Shown here: in pieces, positions 239-53,032 of the stretch
Numbering within the stretch: the stretch's first letter is position 1
How the letters are laid out: each line of letters begins with the position of its first letter
From: Candidatus Woesebacteria bacterium RIFCSPLOWO2_01_FULL_39_23
Lineage (GTDB): Bacteria > Patescibacteriota > Microgenomatia > UBA8517
Direction of reading: 5' to 3'
Assembly (NCBI GenBank): GCA_001793095.1
Contig: MGHG01000011.1
Coordinates: forward strand, 1 to 58,744
DNA length: 58,744 nt
Notes under the pieces: generated by a model
Told to the model about the DNA's origin: nothing
Databases searched by the model: none
Seen by the model: the letters and a program-made list of their open reading frames with translations, nothing else
Translations under genes and position numbers: made by a program

Positions 239-598
239 GTGAGTCTTCAGATTGTTAGTATTATAGGAAATGCTACAAAAGATGCCGAACTTAGAGTTTC
301 CAAAGACGGTGTGTCGTATTTGACCTTCAGAGTTGCGGTAAGCGGACAGGAGGGAACAGCAACATTTTACAACATACTCGTTTTCGGACACTACGGTGAA
401 GCGATAAAAGACCAAGTGACACGCGGTAGACAAATTTACGTCACCGGAAGGTTGCAGATTAGCGAGAAGGGTTATATTAGCGTAGTTGCTGACCACCTCG
501 AGCTATTAGCAAGACCAAAACAAAAGTTGGTAACCGAAACAGAAGTTGAAGTAGAGAAAAAACCGGAGGTAAAGGTAGAAAAGAAGAACGGGAAGTAA
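239..598 (+). CDS. ssb: Single-stranded DNA-binding (OB-fold) protein, short, without acidic tail
   Basis: Motifs IIGNATKDAELR, TFRVAV, FYNILVFG, RGRQIYVTGRL. SD AGGAGGTG at 225-232 favours GTG 239 over GTG 230. Confidence 0.8.
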   Translation: MSLQIVSIIGNATKDAELRVSKDGVSYLTFRVAVSGQEGTATFYNILVFGHYGEAIKDQVTRGRQIYVTGRLQISEKGYISVVADHLELLARPKQKLVTETEVEVEKKPEVKVEKKNGK

Positions 599-673
599 AT
601 TAGTATCTTCTTTTGTCTGAGGTCGGAGCGGTCTTACATACCCGGTCTTCTTTACTACACAGGTTAGTATTTG

Positions 674-744
674 AGACCCGTGAGGGAGTCGAACCCTCCT
701 AAATGGTTTTGCAGACCATCGCATAGCCTCTCTGCCAACGGGTC
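674..744 (-). tRNA. tRNA-Cys (GCA)
   Basis: GACCCGT/ACGGGTC acceptor stem, ATGGT-CTGCAAA-ACCAT anticodon arm, GAGGG-TTCGACT-CCCTC T arm, U discriminator. CCA not encoded. Confidence 0.93.
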
Positions 745-997
745 ATTTATCCATACTGTTTTTTAATCTTTTTAGAAGCTCGTTTCTTACTGCGTGCATT
801 TTGAGCTCTTTTTCTCTTTTCGTGGCATCCTTTTTACTTATATATGCCTCGTAATACAATAATTTCCATGGTGTGTATGGTTTTGTCGATTTTACTTTAC
901 CTATATTATGTAGCTTAAATCTTGCTTTAAGATTGCCACTATATCCAACATATATATCGCCATTTTTTACACTTCTTAGAACATATGCGTAAAACAT
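743..997 (-). CDS. Small GIY-YIG nuclease (UPF0213/YhbQ-like)
   Basis: YAYVL...IYVGYS..LKARF..HN.G...T....PWKL.YYE...A..RE..LK. Its TGA stop overlaps the first 2 nt of tRNA-Cys. Confidence 0.88.
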   Translation of the reverse strand: MFYAYVLRSVKNGDIYVGYSGNLKARFKLHNIGKVKSTKPYTPWKLLYYEAYISKKDATKREKELKMHAVRNELLKRLKNSMDK

Positions 998-1033
998 GTA
1001 ATTGACTTAAAGAGGGGTAATCTACGCATAAGT

Positions 1034-1103
1034 GTTTTGTCCTGCAGAGCAGGATCTCGCTCTGCGAGACAGACCGCCCGATAAACCTCTCTCGCACGTG
1101 GCC
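1034..1103 (-). pseudogene. 5' half of a second tRNA-Cys(GCA), interrupted in the anticodon and lacking its 3' half
   Basis: Removing 1040-1069 gives GGCCACG TG CGAG AGAGGTTTA TCG G GCGGT CTGCAAA AC. The D stem (CGA/TCG) and Cys anticodon loop are intact; the sequence diverges after AC. Confidence 0.7.
1040..1069. repeat. REP-like 30-bp double hairpin
   Basis: TCCTGC-AGA-GCAGGA immediately followed by TCTCGC-TCT-GCGAGA: two 6-bp stems with 3-nt loops. Confidence 0.75.
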
Positions 1104-1142
1104 GATGAATCCTATTTTACTCTACTCACCCTCAAAAACAAA

Positions 1143-1169
1143 ACCCCGCCAAGTTTAACTCAGCGGGGT
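1143..1169 (-). terminator. Intrinsic terminator downstream of hsp20
   Basis: Minus strand ACCCCGC...GCGGGGT followed by TTTGTTTTT. Confidence 0.6.
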
Positions 1170-1187
1170 AGAAAATTTTACCTGAAT

Positions 1188-1589
1188 TTACTTGCCTTTT
1201 GCCTTAACAGTAATTTTTCTAGGTCTCGCAGCTGCAGTTTTGGGAATTGTTATAGATACCACTCCGTCTTCAATTTCAGCATCCGCTTTATCCCACTGCC
1301 CTCCCGATAGTGCAGCTGTGTAATAATACTGATAAGAGGATGATTTATATTCTCCCTTAGACTTACTTTCTTCGGATTTTTCGGCCTTGATAGTCAATAC
1401 ACCATCTTCGATATGAATTTCGACATCCTTGGCTGGAACTCCTGCTACCACTGCTTCAGCAATAATGTTTTGCGGAGTTTCGTGTATTTTTAAGCCTCTT
1501 CGTCCGAGATTCATATCCTCAAACTCATCCAACCACCTCGGCCAAGTAAAAAGATTTCTGAAAGGATCACGCTTAACTAAATCTACCAT
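1188..1589 (-). CDS. Hsp20/alpha-crystallin small heat shock protein
   Basis: DPFRNLF N-terminus, GVPAKDVEIHIEDGVLTIKAE, A...DGVVSITIPK, RKITV. SD AGGAGGTG upstream of ATG 1589. Confidence 0.92.
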   Translation of the reverse strand: MVDLVKRDPFRNLFTWPRWLDEFEDMNLGRRGLKIHETPQNIIAEAVVAGVPAKDVEIHIEDGVLTIKAEKSEESKSKGEYKSSSYQYYYTAALSGGQWDKADAEIEDGVVSITIPKTAAARPRKITVKAKGK

Positions 1590-35907: not shown

Positions 35908-35941
35908 GAGCATAAGAGTAAAAGAGTGGAAAAGTATAAGG
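35908..35941. repeat. 8-nt tandem repeat array at the 3' flank of the four-helix gene
   Basis: gcataaga gtaaaaga gtggaaaa gtataagg; inverted relative to 36345-36382. Confidence 0.6.
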
Positions 35942-35967: not shown

Positions 35968-36342
35968 TTACTTTTTATTCCTTAAACTTTTTTGGTAACT
36001 GAAAAGTAATTTTCTTACTTCTATCAAGAGGTTTGAAATTTCATTATAGTCGCCATTCTCCAGATATTTAAGATCGAACGCAATGTCTATTTGAACAGTT
36101 AATTCCAAGGCTGAGGCGATGCTTATATTAATGAACCGGACAAATTCTTTACGAGTCCGAAAATAACCTTCAACAATATTTGAGACAATTGAAATTGCGG
36201 CTCGGCGAGATTGTGGAATTAATACGAACTTTTCCTCAATTGGAAATAGCTTCGTTAGTTTATATGTTAATAAAACCAAATCTTTGGATTTTTGATAAAC
36301 ATATAATTTTTTATAAGATTGAATGTTGATTTTTTGCTCCAT
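35968..36342 (-). CDS. Four helix bundle protein (TIGR02436 / 23S-IVP / bAvd-like)
   Basis: SYKKL.VYQKS..L....YKLT..FP.EE.F.L..Q.RRAAISI.SNI.EG, F..FINISIASA.EL..Q..IA.DL.YL. Confidence 0.9.
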   Translation of the reverse strand: MEQKINIQSYKKLYVYQKSKDLVLLTYKLTKLFPIEEKFVLIPQSRRAAISIVSNIVEGYFRTRKEFVRFINISIASALELTVQIDIAFDLKYLENGDYNEISNLLIEVRKLLFSYQKSLRNKK

Positions 36343-36344
36343 AA

Positions 36345-36382
36345 TCTTATACTCTTACGCACTTAGGCTCTTACACTCTAAG
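36345..36382. repeat. 8-nt tandem repeat array at the 5' flank of the four-helix gene
   Basis: tcttatac tcttacgc acttaggc tcttacac tctaag. Confidence 0.65.
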
Positions 36383-49130: not shown

Positions 49131-50273
49131 TCAAAGGCCCGGAATTCTTAAGATTCTCAGGCCTATCACATCGAGAAGGTATACTGAAAATATAATCATC
49201 AAAAGTCCCATGATCGCTGCAGTTAATAATTCTTTCCCAGTTTTTGCTCTTGCAGGGTTCCCGGCCGATGTCATTATCATGAACCCCGAGAGAATTATTA
49301 CAATAAATGCGATTCCCCCACCCAATCCTATTGCCCAAGGAAGAATGAAAGAAAGAAACTCTGTTTGATTTGCAACAGGTATACATCCTACCGCTGTGTA
49401 TATTCCTTCCTGGCCATATCTGGTACAGTTAACACTTAACATTGGTCTGGGTGTTAATGGAAATGCTTGTCGGTCTATACAACAAGACATACCCAATGGA
49501 CAGCCGATTGTGTCATGGGGGGGATTTATACCATCCCAATCTCTGTCTGGAGGACAATTGAGGTAATAGCAATTCCCAGGTAAGTCCGTAAAATAACCAA
49601 TACAATTATTGGACGGTTGACATGTCCATACGGTACTATCAAAACAACCTCCACCTCCCGGTCCGCCGAAACCACTGCAGCTATCGGCGCATAAGGGAGA
49701 AAGCTTATCAACTGCCGTGCATTTTTTTTGAGCTAAAGCCGAGCAATAATTACCGGATGGGGATGGATCAGGGTCGACGTAGCAACAGGATGGTGCAACC
49801 GGAGGAATATTAAGGTCGATAACAAATTGGCTATAGCCATATAAAGTCTGTTCGTCATGAGATCTAAGCTCTATTGTGTAAAAACCTGCACCAGGAAACC
49901 AGGGGGTATCTGCAGTCCATCCATTATCAATATAGTTTGGAGGAACTATAACTTGAAGGTTATTAACGGGTATATCGACTGTTTCCGGCCAAAGAGTAAT
50001 ATATTTATGTATTATATAGGGTGTACCACTCGGATTGTATGTAATTTTCAGGATTGGGTCTGGAGGACAGCTCTGATTTGTACAAAGTAAGCTATCGTCG
50101 CAATTTTCGATATATATTGTACGCGCTTCGGATAAATTAGCAGTACTCGGTGAGGTTGTAAGAACACAGGCAAACTGAGCATAAATACTTGAAGGAAAGA
50201 GTGTTTTTATTATTATTAAACTAAAGGTGAAGGTAAAAAATGTGCAGAATATATTTCTAAGTAAGCTCTTCAT
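49131..50273 (-). CDS. Pilin-domain protein 9 with beta-rich and Cys-rich passenger
   Basis: IYA|QF; 20 Cys in the mature part by hand count; C-terminal pilin domain paralogous to pilin 8 (both end RILRIPGL). Confidence 0.82.
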   Translation of the reverse strand: MKSLLRNIFCTFFTFTFSLIIIKTLFPSSIYAQFACVLTTSPSTANLSEARTIYIENCDDSLLCTNQSCPPDPILKITYNPSGTPYIIHKYITLWPETVDIPVNNLQVIVPPNYIDNGWTADTPWFPGAGFYTIELRSHDEQTLYGYSQFVIDLNIPPVAPSCCYVDPDPSPSGNYCSALAQKKCTAVDKLSPLCADSCSGFGGPGGGGCFDSTVWTCQPSNNCIGYFTDLPGNCYYLNCPPDRDWDGINPPHDTIGCPLGMSCCIDRQAFPLTPRPMLSVNCTRYGQEGIYTAVGCIPVANQTEFLSFILPWAIGLGGGIAFIVIILSGFMIMTSAGNPARAKTGKELLTAAIMGLLMIIFSVYLLDVIGLRILRIPGL

Positions 50274-50324
50274 TATTTTAAGTTTATCACGATGCGGATG
50301 TTTTCTGCTGGTATAATGGTTAAA

Positions 50325-50471
50325 TAACTCATAACTTAAATGTCAAAACTTATAACTACAGAGGGCAAAGAACAAAGAGCAAAGAACAGAGGGAAATCAG
50401 TATTATTCTATATTGTATGTTGTATGTTCTTTGTCCTAACTTCAACTCTTCTACTCTTCCACTCTTTCACT
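50325..50471. repeat. Concatenated 7-nt and 8-nt micro-repeat arrays running across the start codon of the SpoIID-like gene
   Basis: taactca taactta aatgtca aaactta taactac / aaagaac aaagagc aaagaac / tatattg tatgttg tatgttc / actcttct actcttcc actctttc. Confidence 0.7.
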
Positions 50472-52106
50472 CTGGTTTCCTCCGAACCTAACTGTGACTC
50501 TCCGGCAATTGGTGATATTGATTATTGTCTTGAGAAGATTCAAAGAGAAATAGACGCCCTAAAACCGGCACACGAATACAATAAAAAAGAACTTTCGGAC
50601 TTGGAGGCGCAAATTGCCTCTCTCACAAAAAGAATTAATGCCCTCTCCGCCCAACTTAAGGAAACAGAGAAAAATTTAACACAAAGAGAGGAGGATCTGG
50701 CTTATGCAAAGAGGATTTTTGAGGAAAAGACTAAAAACCATTATAAATTCATAAGGTTTTATGATGCTTTCTCTGCTTTTATTGCGTCTTCCGATGCCTC
50801 CGAAGCGTTCAGGGAAATAAATTTCAGGCAAAAAGCAGCCGATGAGGACAGAAAGACGATGGGAAAATATGCAACGGATATTGACAAGCTCGAAGCCGAT
50901 AAAGCAAGTCTTGAAAAAAATCAAAAGAGTTTAACCTCCGTTAAAGCGGGTGTTGCAAAAAGGGCAGACTTCCTGGAAGGCGAAGTCGCAAAAACTGAGA
51001 CTTACTTAACAACCCTCTCGTCAAAACAACAAGCACTTATTGCTCAAAAAGAGGCAGGTTTCCAAACATCAGTTGGCGAGACGCCTCCGACTCTCGAGCC
51101 CTGCTCGGGACCTCCCGGGTCGTCAAATTTTTGTGATCCGGGTTTCAGGCCGGCATACGCTGCTTTTTCTTTCGGAGCCCCACACAGAACGGGTTTAAGC
51201 CAGTACGGGGCTTACGGCCGAGCTAAGCTCGGTCAAAATGCAGAAACAATTCTTGCTGATTATTTTCAGGGGTCGTCCTTAAATAAAGGTTATTCCGTAC
51301 CCGCGACAATAGGGGTGAGTGGATATGGAAGATTGGCATTTGAGGATAATTACCTACTGGGTATTTATGAAGTGCCGGAATCCTGGGGAGATAATGGCGG
51401 CTTTGAAGCCCTAAAAGCCCAAGCAGTCGCTGCGCGCTCCTATGCCTTAGCAGTCACAAACGGAGGGTCGGGGACGATTTGTACGACCGAGGCTTGCCAG
51501 GTTTATAAGCCCCAACTAAAATCCGGCAAATGGGCACAGGCTGTTCGGGATACAAGGGGTTGGGTTTTGATAAAAGACGGAGCACCGGCAAAAGCTTACT
51601 ATGCCTCGACGTCGGGTGGATTTACGATATCTCAATGGGGCTGGACGGGCATAAAAGACGCAAAGGGGGGAGATTGGCCAAATCAAGCGTATGAAAAAAT
51701 TTCTGCATCACCCTGGTTTTACAAAGGTTGGTACAAAAGCCGGGGTGGTGCGACTTGCGGGAAAAGCAATCCTTGGCTAACCGGTCAGCAAACGGCGGAT
51801 ATCATTAATGCCTGGCAAGTCTTATATAAAGGCGGAGGAGATACGGGGAGAATATCTCCCGTCGACACAGCCTGCTGGGGAGGGAATCCTTATTCAATAT
51901 CTGAACTTGCCGGGATAGGGGGATATACTTCGGTCGACAGCGTATCTGTAGTTTATGCTAATTCGGGTTCGACTCAGACAATACTACTTGGGACCAATAA
52001 AGGAAGTATAAATATTTCTGGAGATGAGTTTAAGAAAGCTTTTAATCTTCGTGCACCGGGATACATTGGCCTCAAGAGTTCGCTCTTCAATATAGAGAAA
52101 CTATAA
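50340..52106 (+). CDS. SpoIID/LytB-domain protein with N-terminal TM and coiled coil
   Basis: PcsB-like coiled coil; G.PH..GLSQYGA..RA; YL.GI.EVP.SW, EALKAQAVAARSYA, T..CQVY, YY.STSGG, LRAPG..GLKS..F.I. Confidence 0.88.
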   Translation: MSKLITTEGKEQRAKNRGKSVLFYIVCCMFFVLTSTLLLFHSFTLVSSEPNCDSPAIGDIDYCLEKIQREIDALKPAHEYNKKELSDLEAQIASLTKRINALSAQLKETEKNLTQREEDLAYAKRIFEEKTKNHYKFIRFYDAFSAFIASSDASEAFREINFRQKAADEDRKTMGKYATDIDKLEADKASLEKNQKSLTSVKAGVAKRADFLEGEVAKTETYLTTLSSKQQALIAQKEAGFQTSVGETPPTLEPCSGPPGSSNFCDPGFRPAYAAFSFGAPHRTGLSQYGAYGRAKLGQNAETILADYFQGSSLNKGYSVPATIGVSGYGRLAFEDNYLLGIYEVPESWGDNGGFEALKAQAVAARSYALAVTNGGSGTICTTEACQVYKPQLKSGKWAQAVRDTRGWVLIKDGAPAKAYYASTSGGFTISQWGWTGIKDAKGGDWPNQAYEKISASPWFYKGWYKSRGGATCGKSNPWLTGQQTADIINAWQVLYKGGGDTGRISPVDTACWGGNPYSISELAGIGGYTSVDSVSVVYANSGSTQTILLGTNKGSINISGDEFKKAFNLRAPGYIGLKSSLFNIEKL

Positions 52107-52108
52107 TT

Positions 52109-52250
52109 TAACTCGATACTCATAACTCATAACTTATTACTCATTACAAATAATTGGTGCGTAGGGGTAAATCAGTCTCAAATGGTGATATAATGCAATT
52201 AACCTAAAGATTTAAGTTAATAAGTTTTTAGTTATAAGTTATTAGTTATT
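52109..52250. repeat. Oppositely oriented heptamer arrays bracketing a TATAAT promoter-like site
   Basis: taactcg atactca taactca taactta ttactca (52109-52150) versus taagtt/tagtt units (52212-52250). Confidence 0.6.
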
Positions 52251-52253
52251 ACA

Positions 52254-53006
52254 ATGCCTGATCTTTTTGTTTCTGGAGAAAAGAACGTTAATGCTCAAGT
52301 TATTGATGAGCAAATTAAACCGGAAGTGAGCGTTCATCCTCCGGTAAAGCATCCACATGTAAAGTTAGGTAATAGGCCTTCGAGTCTGAAAGAGGTTGAA
52401 ACCATGAAGAGTATTGATCATCAGGTCAAAATTCCTGAAGAATCCCAAGGTGGTCCGATTTCTGCTTTTAATTATTATCCGAAAAATGTCAATTTCATTA
52501 ATAAAGATCCCGAAGAAAAAGTTATTCTTTTTTTGAGAAGGCATCCTGTGACAAATCTTTCTTGGGTAGTATTAACTTTTGTTTTAATAATTGCGCCGTC
52601 TTTTTTGACAGTCATGCCTTTTTTTGACGCTCTTCCGCTGAAAGCGGGTACTTTACTGATACTGATCTGGTATCTTATGACCCTGACTTATGCCTTCCAA
52701 AAGTTTTTAGACTGGTTTTTTTCTGTAAATATAGTAACTGATGAACGTATTTTTGACGTTGATTTTTATAATCTGGTATATAGAAAAATGACAGATGCCA
52801 ATATTGACCAGATTCAAGACGTTACAGTTCAAATAGGTGGAGGAATTAGAACAATATTCAATTACGGTGATGTATTGATACAAACTGCCGCCGAGATACC
52901 GGAAATCGAATTTGAATCTGTTCCACAGCCAGACAAGGTTTCAAAAATATTAAGAGAGTTGCGAGTACAAGAAGAACAGGAAAAGCTAGAAGGAAGAGTG
53001 AGATGA
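52254..53006 (+). CDS. Bacterial PH-domain membrane protein (bPH_2-like)
   Basis: EEKV.LFLRRH, two TM helices, W......VTDERI.D, .IQDV......R..FNYG.V.IQTA. Confidence 0.82.
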   Translation: MPDLFVSGEKNVNAQVIDEQIKPEVSVHPPVKHPHVKLGNRPSSLKEVETMKSIDHQVKIPEESQGGPISAFNYYPKNVNFINKDPEEKVILFLRRHPVTNLSWVVLTFVLIIAPSFLTVMPFFDALPLKAGTLLILIWYLMTLTYAFQKFLDWFFSVNIVTDERIFDVDFYNLVYRKMTDANIDQIQDVTVQIGGGIRTIFNYGDVLIQTAAEIPEIEFESVPQPDKVSKILRELRVQEEQEKLEGRVR

Positions 53007-53032
53007 TAACTAATAACTAATAATATAATGCC

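Follow-up and report, generated by a model that had tools for sequence, protein, structure and literature searches.

Heptamers are the commonest class of long simple sequence repeats in prokaryotes, and slippage has been proposed as their cause, according to the account in PMC4679880, which cites Mrazek et al. 2007; an excess of heptamers in prokaryotic genomes is also described in PMC4692102. Within open reading frames (ORFs), heptamer arrays are tolerated only at the periphery (PMC4679880). One such periphery is the subject of this study: the 5' end of a gene for a SpoIID/LytB-domain peptidoglycan hydrolase (50340–52106, plus strand, 588 amino acids) in a stretch of 58,744 nucleotides (nt), referred to below as the window, from Candidatus Woesebacteria bacterium RIFCSPLOWO2_01_FULL_39_23. 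Here, adjacent arrays of 7- and 8-nt units encode the basic and the hydrophobic part of a predicted export signal. The genome that contains the window amounts to 1.13 Mb in 18 contigs, and the Woesebacteria host is an ultra-small groundwater bacterium. At the protein level, the nearest named relatives belong to Candidatus Woesebacteria (Microgenomates, Patescibacteria).

How does this locus compare with the systems that have been described? The long simple sequence repeats with units of 5–11 nt (Mrazek et al. 2007), as they are portrayed in the later account, share with the woesebacterial arrays a preference for period 7, an excess over chance, a mostly intergenic location, and a proposed origin by slippage. 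On the same portrayal, the woesebacterial arrays differ in lying inside an essential-looking coding segment whose sequence they supply, in being concentrated in one orthologous segment throughout the lineage, and in that copy-number polymorphism was not detected.

Another parallel is the TAACTGA direct repeat, which is found upstream of start codons in Beggiatoaceae, Cyanobacteria, and Bacteroidetes (MacGregor 2015, PMC4679880). As in those genomes, TAACTNA heptamers stand directly before the start and after stops in the window, and their forward orientation stops all three frames; arrays enter ORFs only at the N- or C-terminal periphery, and canonical ribosome-binding sites are absent. However, the units in the window are TAACTCA, TAACTTA, and TAACTAA, the phylum is Patescibacteria, many other families coexist with this one, and the coding arrays consist of stop-free units that form a predicted signal.

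A parallel within coding sequence is provided by the opa genes of Neisseria, where pyrimidine-rich, non-triplet CTCTT repeats encode the hydrophobic core of the signal peptide (PMC3960869); the octamer of the window, ACTCTTCC, contains CTCTT. The opa tracts are long and perfect, and through them the gene alternates between on and off states at a rate of about 1e-3 per generation (PMC3960869). By contrast, the tracts in the window are short and degenerate; they always keep the frame and do not vary among the populations sampled.

A further ingredient is the lax sequence requirement of signal peptides. The yeast invertase signal, in the 1987 experiments of Kaiser and colleagues, reportedly tolerates near-random replacement, and such tolerance explains why almost any basic-then-hydrophobic peptide can serve. 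Unlike in the laboratory result, nature here appears to repeat the experiment with tandem repeats as the source of sequence. Heptamer repeats, TAACTNA units at starts, coding repeats in a leader peptide, and lax signal requirements are thus ingredients already known. In the literature, no account was found of tandem repeats in woesebacterial genomes or of signal peptides built from repeats in Patescibacteria, nor of the combination reported here: a lineage-wide and gene-specific hotspot, diverse arrays of 7- and 8-nt units that supply a signal, and wholesale replacement between near-identical strains, with no sign of phase switching.

Arrays in the first 48 codons

Codons 1–48 of the ORF (50340–50483) would form a Sec-type export signal for the SpoIID/LytB wall hydrolase. 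Within codons 9–45 lie three adjacent arrays called by Tandem Repeats Finder (TRF), all read on the plus strand: CAAAGAA at 50366–50388 (period 7, 3.3 copies, 87% matches), TATGTTG at 50409–50428 (period 7, 2.9 copies), and CTTCCACT, a rotation of ACTCTTCC, at 50440–50473 (period 8, 4.2 copies). When TRF is combined with a repeat search, the first of these becomes a purine-rich array of three 14-mers, that is six heptamers of the CAAAGAR/CAGAGGG type, spanning 50358–50399; its 42 nt are in frame and encode TEGKEQRAKNRGKS, the basic n-region. The TATGTTG array belongs to a T-rich element (50402–50438) encoding LFYIVCCMFFVL, the first half of the hydrophobic region. The second half, STLLLFHSFTL, is encoded by the octamer array, ACTCTTYY in degenerate form. 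The last base of the Leu45 codon and the c-region codons for V-S-S (50474–50483) then adjoin the conserved mature start EPNCDSP (50484 onward).

The initial annotation of this DNA had described the first codons as successive micro-repeat arrays, a description that the TRF arrays bear out, and the peptides it attributed to them (EGKEQRAKNRGK, LFYIVCCMFFVL, and STLLLFHSFTL) agree exactly with the in-frame translation. It also placed the micro-repeats of the n-region and h-region at the level of DNA. Indeed, units of 7 and 8 nt pass through all three reading frames in the signal region; since neither length is a multiple of three, the periodicity belongs to the DNA itself and does not stem from a preference for codons or amino acids. 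None of the units inside the ORF has a stop in any frame of the sense strand.

Residues 1–19 (MSKLITTEGKEQRAKNRGK) comprise four lysines, two arginines, and two glutamates, giving a net charge of about +4. The hydrophobic stretch that follows (residues 20–46, SVLFYIVCCMFFVLTSTLLLFHSFTLV) has 27 residues, enough for a membrane anchor, and the maximal 15-residue Kyte-Doolittle mean within the first 70 residues is 2.56. The sequence V-S-S|EPNC agrees with the -3/-1 rule and aligns with VSA|EP, IFA|EP, LIA|EP, and VKA|QE of orthologs; on that rule, cleavage would be expected after V-S-S. On these features a cleaved signal and an uncleaved anchor are equally possible. Bacillus SpoIID, which like the window protein has an N-terminal membrane or export segment, stays anchored by that segment.

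The arrays that encode the two halves of the signal are related to each other. Arms of 30 nt at 50362–50391 and 50408–50437 form an inverted pair that is 73% complementary, and its inverted-repeat score (z 3.9) was reached by 0 of 100 codon shuffles. Inverted pairs between n-region and h-region rise above codon shuffles in 9 of 54 loci, the window included. An RNA hairpin formed by the inverted arrays was considered as an explanation and rejected, as the fold predicted for 50324–50490 is no better than shuffles (z -0.33). In addition, the h-region element has an intergenic paralogue, a TTCTTTG/TTGTTTG array (57933–57969, plus strand) in a 69-nt divergent spacer: 50402–50434 and 57933–57965, which are 7.5 kb apart, agree in direct orientation at 30 of 33 bases (91%, E 4e-5). 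In the comparison with metagenome contigs, the paralogue also came up as a second site on the same contig. Two earlier suggestions are upheld, namely that the basic array is the reverse complement of an intergenic family (CAAAGAA against the TTCTTTG unit at 57937–57968) and that repeat units of the signal also occur in intergenic DNA.

Which enzyme carries this signal? The product of the ORF matches PF08486 (1.4e-13; 51.7 bits against a threshold of 23) and TIGR02669 (101.6 bits against a cut-off of 83.3). It does not reach the cut-off of the sporulation equivalog TIGR02870 (54 against 235) and is, therefore, not SpoIID proper. The SpoIID structures 4rwr, 5i1t, and 5txu also match, and in the catalytic region the motif E-A-L-K-A-Q-A-x-A-A-R is aligned, with FEALKAQAVAARSYAL of the window protein opposite IEALKAQALAARTF of 4rwr. 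The likeness to SpoIID of Bacillus and Clostridioides and to TIGR02669 thus lies in a catalytic domain recognised above curated cut-offs. By contrast with those proteins, this one comes from a non-sporulating bacterium of the Candidate Phyla Radiation (CPR) and has a long coiled coil (residues about 60–235), for which family matches are weak, between the signal (1–48) and the SpoIID/LytB domain. Also unlike them, proteins of this type have been named "CwlO-like" by the Joint Genome Institute (JGI), and the gene adjoins a type IV secretion cluster, being transcribed divergently from a row of pilin genes.

Excess and gene specificity of the arrays

How far does the density of arrays exceed chance? 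The window has 34 TRF rows, three times the 11.2±3.0 obtained in dinucleotide shuffles, and 17 rows of period 7, eleven times the 1.5±1.5 of the shuffles. Period 7 is also the commonest period genome-wide, with 141 of 646 TRF rows. Arrays in the genome keep largely to the edges of genes: their coverage is 3.4% in the 30 nt before starts, 3.3% in the 30 nt after stops, and 0.7% within coding sequence, and they number 0.42/kb in the first 60 codons against 0.29/kb in internal coding sequence. Of 1,182 ORF-based gene calls, none but the SpoIID/LytB gene has three arrays within the first 70 codons.

The same segment is affected in orthologs. In 50 Woesebacteria loci (49 orthologs and the window) anchored at the mature start, the 150 nt before that point hold 41 arrays, or 5.5/kb, compared with about 0.3/kb over the other 7 kb; arrays in the signal zone are present in 26–29 of the 50 loci. 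When the 50 segments of 150 nt are isolated, they yield 48 arrays against 4.6±1.9 after codon shuffling (about 0.09 per locus), and 35 heptamer arrays against 0.8. An explanation of the arrays as a TRF artefact of low complexity is thereby rejected, because in codon shuffles their number falls to a tenth, and that of the heptamers to about 1/44.

The concentration is specific to this gene. In the first 180 nt there are 0.78 arrays per SpoIID/LytB gene, whereas 186 neighbouring genes with hydrophobic N-termini have 0.07 and 155 without them have 0.065. The idea that all signal peptides tolerate arrays can, therefore, be dismissed. Two further candidate causes were tried and rejected: leaderless mRNA, since 84 genes with TATAAT 4–12 nt before the start have only 0.16% arrays in their first 60 nt, and supercoiling between divergent promoters, with an array coverage of 1.27% in divergent genes against 0.87%.

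A strong heptamer array is also found within the first ~30 codons of four other genes in the genome: C17:36897–38018, C2:15736–16278, C9:272836–274563, and C9:309864–311405, all on the minus strand. The arrays are TTATCAT x7, TTTGTTA x6.3, TTAAAAC x4.6, and ACTTACT x3.6, and they encode hydrophobic or basic N-terminal stretches, for example MLSFIISFLSFIIYHL.

An older signal and the families of units

Did the repeats create the signal, or did they rewrite one that already existed? Orthologs of the window protein are found in 41 of 41 relatives, with no internal stop in the best match of each, and all 41 have an N-terminal hydrophobic signal. Every readable ortholog shows a basic-then-hydrophobic segment followed by a mature start of the form (A)EP(D/N)C, AQ(D/E)C, or ASHC, and in all close relatives a lysine or arginine precedes the hydrophobic core. 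In 24 more distant Microgenomates orthologs (from Collier-, Curtiss-, and Daviesbacteria and others; 42–47% identity), the signals are short, classical, and non-periodic, as in MKWRYLLIVAIVFGFYAGVVSA|ETNC, and the signal zone has 0.7 arrays/kb, barely above the 0.42/kb of these loci overall. Since the signal is universal in the orthologs and classical in the distant Microgenomates, the predicted export function is ancestral, and the arrays overwrote or extended an older signal.

This comparison speaks against the view, put forward in the initial annotation, that the signal was assembled de novo: every ortholog has one, those of the distant Microgenomates are non-periodic, and the octamer part of the present signal appears old. 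The periodicity itself is not contradicted by the orthologs, whose N-termini differ from that of the window protein and are in many cases periodic with other units.

The unit families vary by lineage. Those in n-regions include TCAAAAC, AAGTACA, and AGATTTA/AAATTTC, and those in h-regions TTGTTAC/CTTGTCA, CTAACTA, CTATGTA, and TTGGTTA. The 42-nt purine-rich array is absent from the closest relatives (L021–L024), and both it and the TATGTTG element are restricted to the lineage of the window; arrays similar to the purine-rich one occur elsewhere in the genome, for example at C12:41153–41174 (95%). The octamer array is found at the same position in L021, L023, and L024, which belong to the window's clade, has decayed in L022, and occurs also in the scattered branches L034, L046, L101, and P0071, with peptides such as ISTLLLFYSFTL. 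The octamer part has 47–82% identity with the relatives, and from this distribution the array appears to be either old or recurrent. The ACTCTTYY family is present at at least 10 other loci of the genome, among them C12:106790–106817 (93%) and, in the window, 35915–35936 (91%).

The last of these is one of two octamer arrays, 35915–35936 and 36345–36379, that flank a small gene for a four-helix bundle (35968–36342, minus strand). The flanking arrays are of the ACTCTTYY/TCTTACAC family and include 22 nt that are 91% identical to 50452–50473.

Could a single dominant selfish unit family lie behind the arrays? This was rejected, as 86 heptamer classes are found among 141 arrays. The earlier description of the repeats as "selfish" is not borne out by this figure: such diversity fits local slippage, and only some families recur at dispersed sites. 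The TAACTCA/TAACTTA/TAACTAA family (at most one mismatch) makes up 25 of 134 heptamer arrays, among the 86 unit classes. Copy numbers of 4.1–4.9 are seen in 13 of 30 heptamer arrays of the signal zone and in 10 of 49 intergenic ones; as a signature of steps of three added units, this is suggestive only.

Replacement of signals between strains

Within clusters of proteins at 90% identity, the mature parts are nearly identical and the signals are sometimes unrelated. Where the first 300 mature residues of a pair are at least 99.5% identical, the identity of the signals is below 0.5 in 17% of pairs and at least 0.9 in 82%. The distribution is bimodal, and discrete alleles are found in three independent clusters. 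In each cluster, both alleles were recovered from several independent assemblies, so that they are not assembly artefacts. A relation between alleles by inversion or frameshift was considered and rejected, since they share no similarity on either strand.

The extent of the replaced segment differs between clusters. L108 and L109 are 93–100% identical over about 4 kb, save for an island of about 300 nt that consists of the pilin signal, the promoter spacer, and the SpoIID signal; the latter is made from GTGTAAA-type units and TTTTACTC x4 in L108, against AAAAGTY and CTTACWT x5 in L109. L106 and L107 are 100% identical from the EPNC codon on and cannot be aligned before it. Upstream, L113 and L114 are 95–100% identical over about 540 nt, a stretch that takes in the -10 box; downstream, they are mostly 97–100% identical over about 3 kb. 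Between these flanks, from immediately beyond the -10 box up to the mature start, the two sequences differ. The leader of L114 is about 100 nt longer than that of L113 and is full of other arrays. The identical promoter of this pair indicates that the variable unit can be just leader and signal. The bimodal alleles, together with the diverged promoter and pilin signal in L108 and L109, favour recombinational exchange. Differences of seven residues in length within other clusters were also examined as candidate copy-number variants and rejected: the DNA is identical, and the gene callers had chosen different starts.

The neighbouring pilin genes vary as well. Between L108 (about 1010–1110) and L109, the signal peptide of the divergent pilin has been replaced (MRKAYLLPLLFLLLSLLFISPRKINA against MKRLLLLTILILGVILLNPQKINA), with a mature part that is nearly identical from AAGEQC onward. 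In L113, a pilin-like gene body (289..1326, minus strand) is 44–70% identical to its counterpart in L114 over 600–1335, with flanks at about 100%, which makes it the second segment of the type IV secretion region that is hypervariable between strains. A composite sequence is seen in the database protein P0006, whose first ~370 residues resemble another Woesebacteria cluster and whose last ~220 are almost identical to the window protein. It is either an assembly chimera or a natural recombinant.

Start codon, promoter, and flanking repeats

Where does the signal begin? A putative extended -10 promoter box, TGgTATAAT (50309–50317, plus strand), can be read 22 nt before the ATG, and orthologs have a (T)GGTATAAT or GCTATAAT box 6–24 nt before their starts. 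Exact TATAAT peaks 6–9 nt before predicted start codons genome-wide (62 genes), which suggests that leaderless or short-leader mRNAs may be common in this Woesebacteria genome. The ATG at 50340–50342 is the first start after an in-frame stop and the first AUG after the -10 box. It opens a ATGTCAAAACT start that is common to the window and L021, with similar starts in L020 and L007. The sole other in-frame start before the mature part, M29 at 50424, would leave no basic residues, and no Shine-Dalgarno motif is present at either ATG. Thus, 50340 is very probably the start codon, and translation is not expected to begin downstream of the repeats. None of the RNA runs searched for this gene holds it.

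Immediately before the ATG stands the heptamer pair TAACTCA TAACTTA with a further A (50325–50339, plus strand); the pair itself (50325–50338) ends 1 nt before the ATG, and the in-frame TAA at 50337–50339 closes the frame. By eye, the units around the ATG can be followed as TAACTCA TAACTTA AATGTCA AAACTTA TAACTAC, with about 29 of 35 matches to TAACTYA. A repeat search likewise gives a degenerate AAACTYA/TAACTYA continuation (TCAAAAC TTATAAC TACA) over codons 2–7, SKLITT (50343–50360, plus strand), and a direct repeat of 50326–50336 and 50347–50357 (AACTCATAACT and AACTTATAACT) that is 91% identical at a distance of 21 nt, in register with heptamers. The initial annotation placed the ATG within a taactca-type array; the pair before the ATG is clear, but the units at and after it are degenerate, and TRF calls no array at 50325–50360. 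In the orthologs L021, L020, and L007, TRF does call TCAAAAC/TCAAAGC arrays that begin at the ATG, and in L020 the second ATG is a variant unit of its array of this type.

GC-rich palindromes are inserted in the leaders of L023 (about 585–645) and L024 (about 30–85) (…CTTCCCGAACCGGAGGCA…, …GGGTCGGTGACCCACCGGGTCGGAG…). The one in L023 lies between the present start and an older ATGTCAAAA start, and the two starts are out of frame.

TAACTYA units in tandem carry stops on both strands, and those that flank the gene, therefore, bound the ORF. An exact copy of the 15 nt at 50325–50339 lies at 52122–52136, within a TRF-called TAACTCA x5.1 array of the same family directly after the stop codon of the gene (52109–52144, plus strand). 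L021 has AACTCAA x4.3 directly after its SpoIID stop.

Arrays of this kind recur at the boundaries of genes. The window has TAACTCA, TAAGTTA, and ATAACTA arrays at 52109–52144, 52207–52249, and 53006–53023, one directly behind the SpoIID stop, one ahead of the start that follows, and one behind the stop after that; in L021, the TAACTCA-family array right after the SpoIID stop is at about 1835–1865. A stop triplet is found in 75–81% of gene-boundary arrays, against about 60% expected, and in tandem such arrays close all three frames.

How might the leader be renewed?

The explanation preferred here, to which a probability of about 0.6 can be assigned, is that arrays made by slippage, and filtered for a basic-then-hydrophobic pattern, continually replace the loosely constrained leader of an ancestral Sec-type signal. 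Replication slippage would make the 7-, 8-, and 14-nt arrays, and at the window locus a strand-switch copy probably made the inverted pair. Because units of 7 or 8 nt cycle through all frames, only stop-free units could persist inside the ORF, and only changes that sum to a multiple of three bases (3 x 14 nt, 3 x 7 nt, 3 x 8 nt) would be fixable. A-rich units are read as Lys, Glu, Gln, Asn, and Arg and would give an n-region; their T-rich complements are read as Phe, Leu, Ile, Val, Cys, and Tyr and would give an h-region. As an A-rich repeat is basic and its complement hydrophobic, one family in two orientations could make both halves of a signal. Selection would need to retain the basic-then-hydrophobic pattern only, and the segment from promoter to mature start would be replaced quickly, by turnover of arrays in place, by recombinational exchange, or by both. 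We infer the slippage mechanism and the export competence of the resulting peptides; the arrays, their excess, their concentration by gene and lineage, the ancestral state, and the strain-level replacement are what the comparisons display directly.

Several observations weigh against this explanation. The gene specificity of the hotspot is not accounted for by signal tolerance, by leaderless transcription, or by divergent transcription. Some families (ACTCTTYY, CAAAGNN, TAACTYA, and the 33-nt copy) recur across genera or at dispersed sites, which could reflect a sequence-specific function or origin beyond what simple slippage provides. The contigs of 8 metagenome runs are identical over 50150–50650, with no indel; the exact window protein is found on 21 contigs, and its only variant is H41N. 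No copy-number variants that would represent intermediate alleles were seen among the sampled consensus contigs, which can hide rare variants. The missing intermediates fit ongoing slippage poorly and rare replacement or recombination better. Finally, no donor of the alternative alleles was found among 110 loci, in which matches were at the level of arrays only.

Is the variability itself under selection? The segment from promoter to mature start may be a dedicated hypervariable cassette, in which signals are repeatedly born from 7–8-nt repeats, swapped wholesale, and kept by diversifying or tuning selection on an autolysin; this is put forward tentatively, as a possibility on the weaker side. 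Somewhat more doubtful is that the arrays are selected as nucleic acid, as a tuning knob for the amount of a dangerous wall hydrolase that is made or exported. They would then act through unstructured A-rich mRNA, protein-binding sites, or the context of translation initiation, and their hypervariability would be adaptive. Such tuning would suit a hotspot that is gene-specific and lineage-wide, an island that in L113 and L114 extends from immediately behind an identical -10 box to the mature start, and the concentration of arrays within 30 nt of start and stop codons in the genome. The predicted fold leaves the first ~38 nt of the predicted mRNA unpaired, and CAAAGNN-type units recur in the n-regions of several lineages. 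However, units differ so widely between close relatives that one sequence-specific binder is unlikely, and the RNA fold, at z -0.33, is no more stable than that of shuffles.

If the leader instead contained a contingency locus like opa, gain or loss of a 7- or 8-nt unit would switch the hydrolase off or on. Non-triplet repeats do lie in the region that encodes the leader peptide, as CTCTT does in opa (PMC3960869), and some orthologs have nearly perfect arrays (AAATTTC x4.9 in L050, AAGTACA x4.4 in L060, TACTCTTT x3.9 in L034). The tracts of the window, though, are short and imperfect, with at most 4.2 copies and 87–92% matches. A frameshifted state is seen in none of the 41 relatives, which have no internal stop, or of the 50 loci, whose anchored ORFs read through, and no indel is seen in the consensus contigs of the 8 runs, which can hide rare variants. 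Variants within clusters differ by point changes or by replacement of the whole segment rather than by the number of units. In view of the missing copy-number variation and frameshifted orthologs, phase variation is very improbable. A start at the internal ATG 50424 has only slightly better odds, that is, it is quite improbable; it would make the purine-rich array a 5' untranslated leader and leave the T-rich arrays alone as coding. Arrays in this genome normally lie just upstream of starts, neither ATG has a Shine-Dalgarno motif, and gene callers disagree on the starts of orthologs. Yet the resulting signal would be without a basic residue, whereas Lys or Arg is present in every close relative; from the codon that follows the stop the frame is open, with 50340 as the first AUG after the -10 box; and the ATGTCAAAACT start is common to the window and L021. 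The least probable account is that export arose de novo when selfish mobile repeats landed before a gene without a signal. Every part of the present signal is derived from arrays, and one element has a near-copy in intergenic DNA, as this account would have it. Signals are nevertheless universal in orthologs and classical in the outgroup, and SpoIID/LytB enzymes act outside the membrane, so that export must predate the arrays. Moreover, no mobility machinery or target-site features were seen, and the units are very diverse.

Implications

The origin of new signal peptides is rarely seen in nature; their tolerance to changes of sequence was already known. In the SpoIID/LytB proteins of Woesebacteria, the raw material (frame-cycling repeats), the filter (stop-free and basic-then-hydrophobic), and the outcome are visible in one gene family, with the outgroup as the starting state. 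The outcome is a set of different, working-looking leaders on nearly identical enzymes. The family thus offers a testable example of coding sequence made from microsatellites, and of the sense/antisense hydropathy relation of the genetic code in use, with one repeat family giving both halves of a signal.

For the annotation of CPR genomes, it follows that the N-termini and start codons of such genes are not transferable by homology, and that sharp strain-level islands at the 5' end may be mistaken for assembly errors. If the segment from promoter to mature start is indeed a hypervariable cassette, it would represent the natural and ongoing birth of functional peptides from microsatellites. The restriction of the hotspot to one gene could also be a sign that the dosage of the autolysin, encoded beside the type IV secretion cluster, is controlled.

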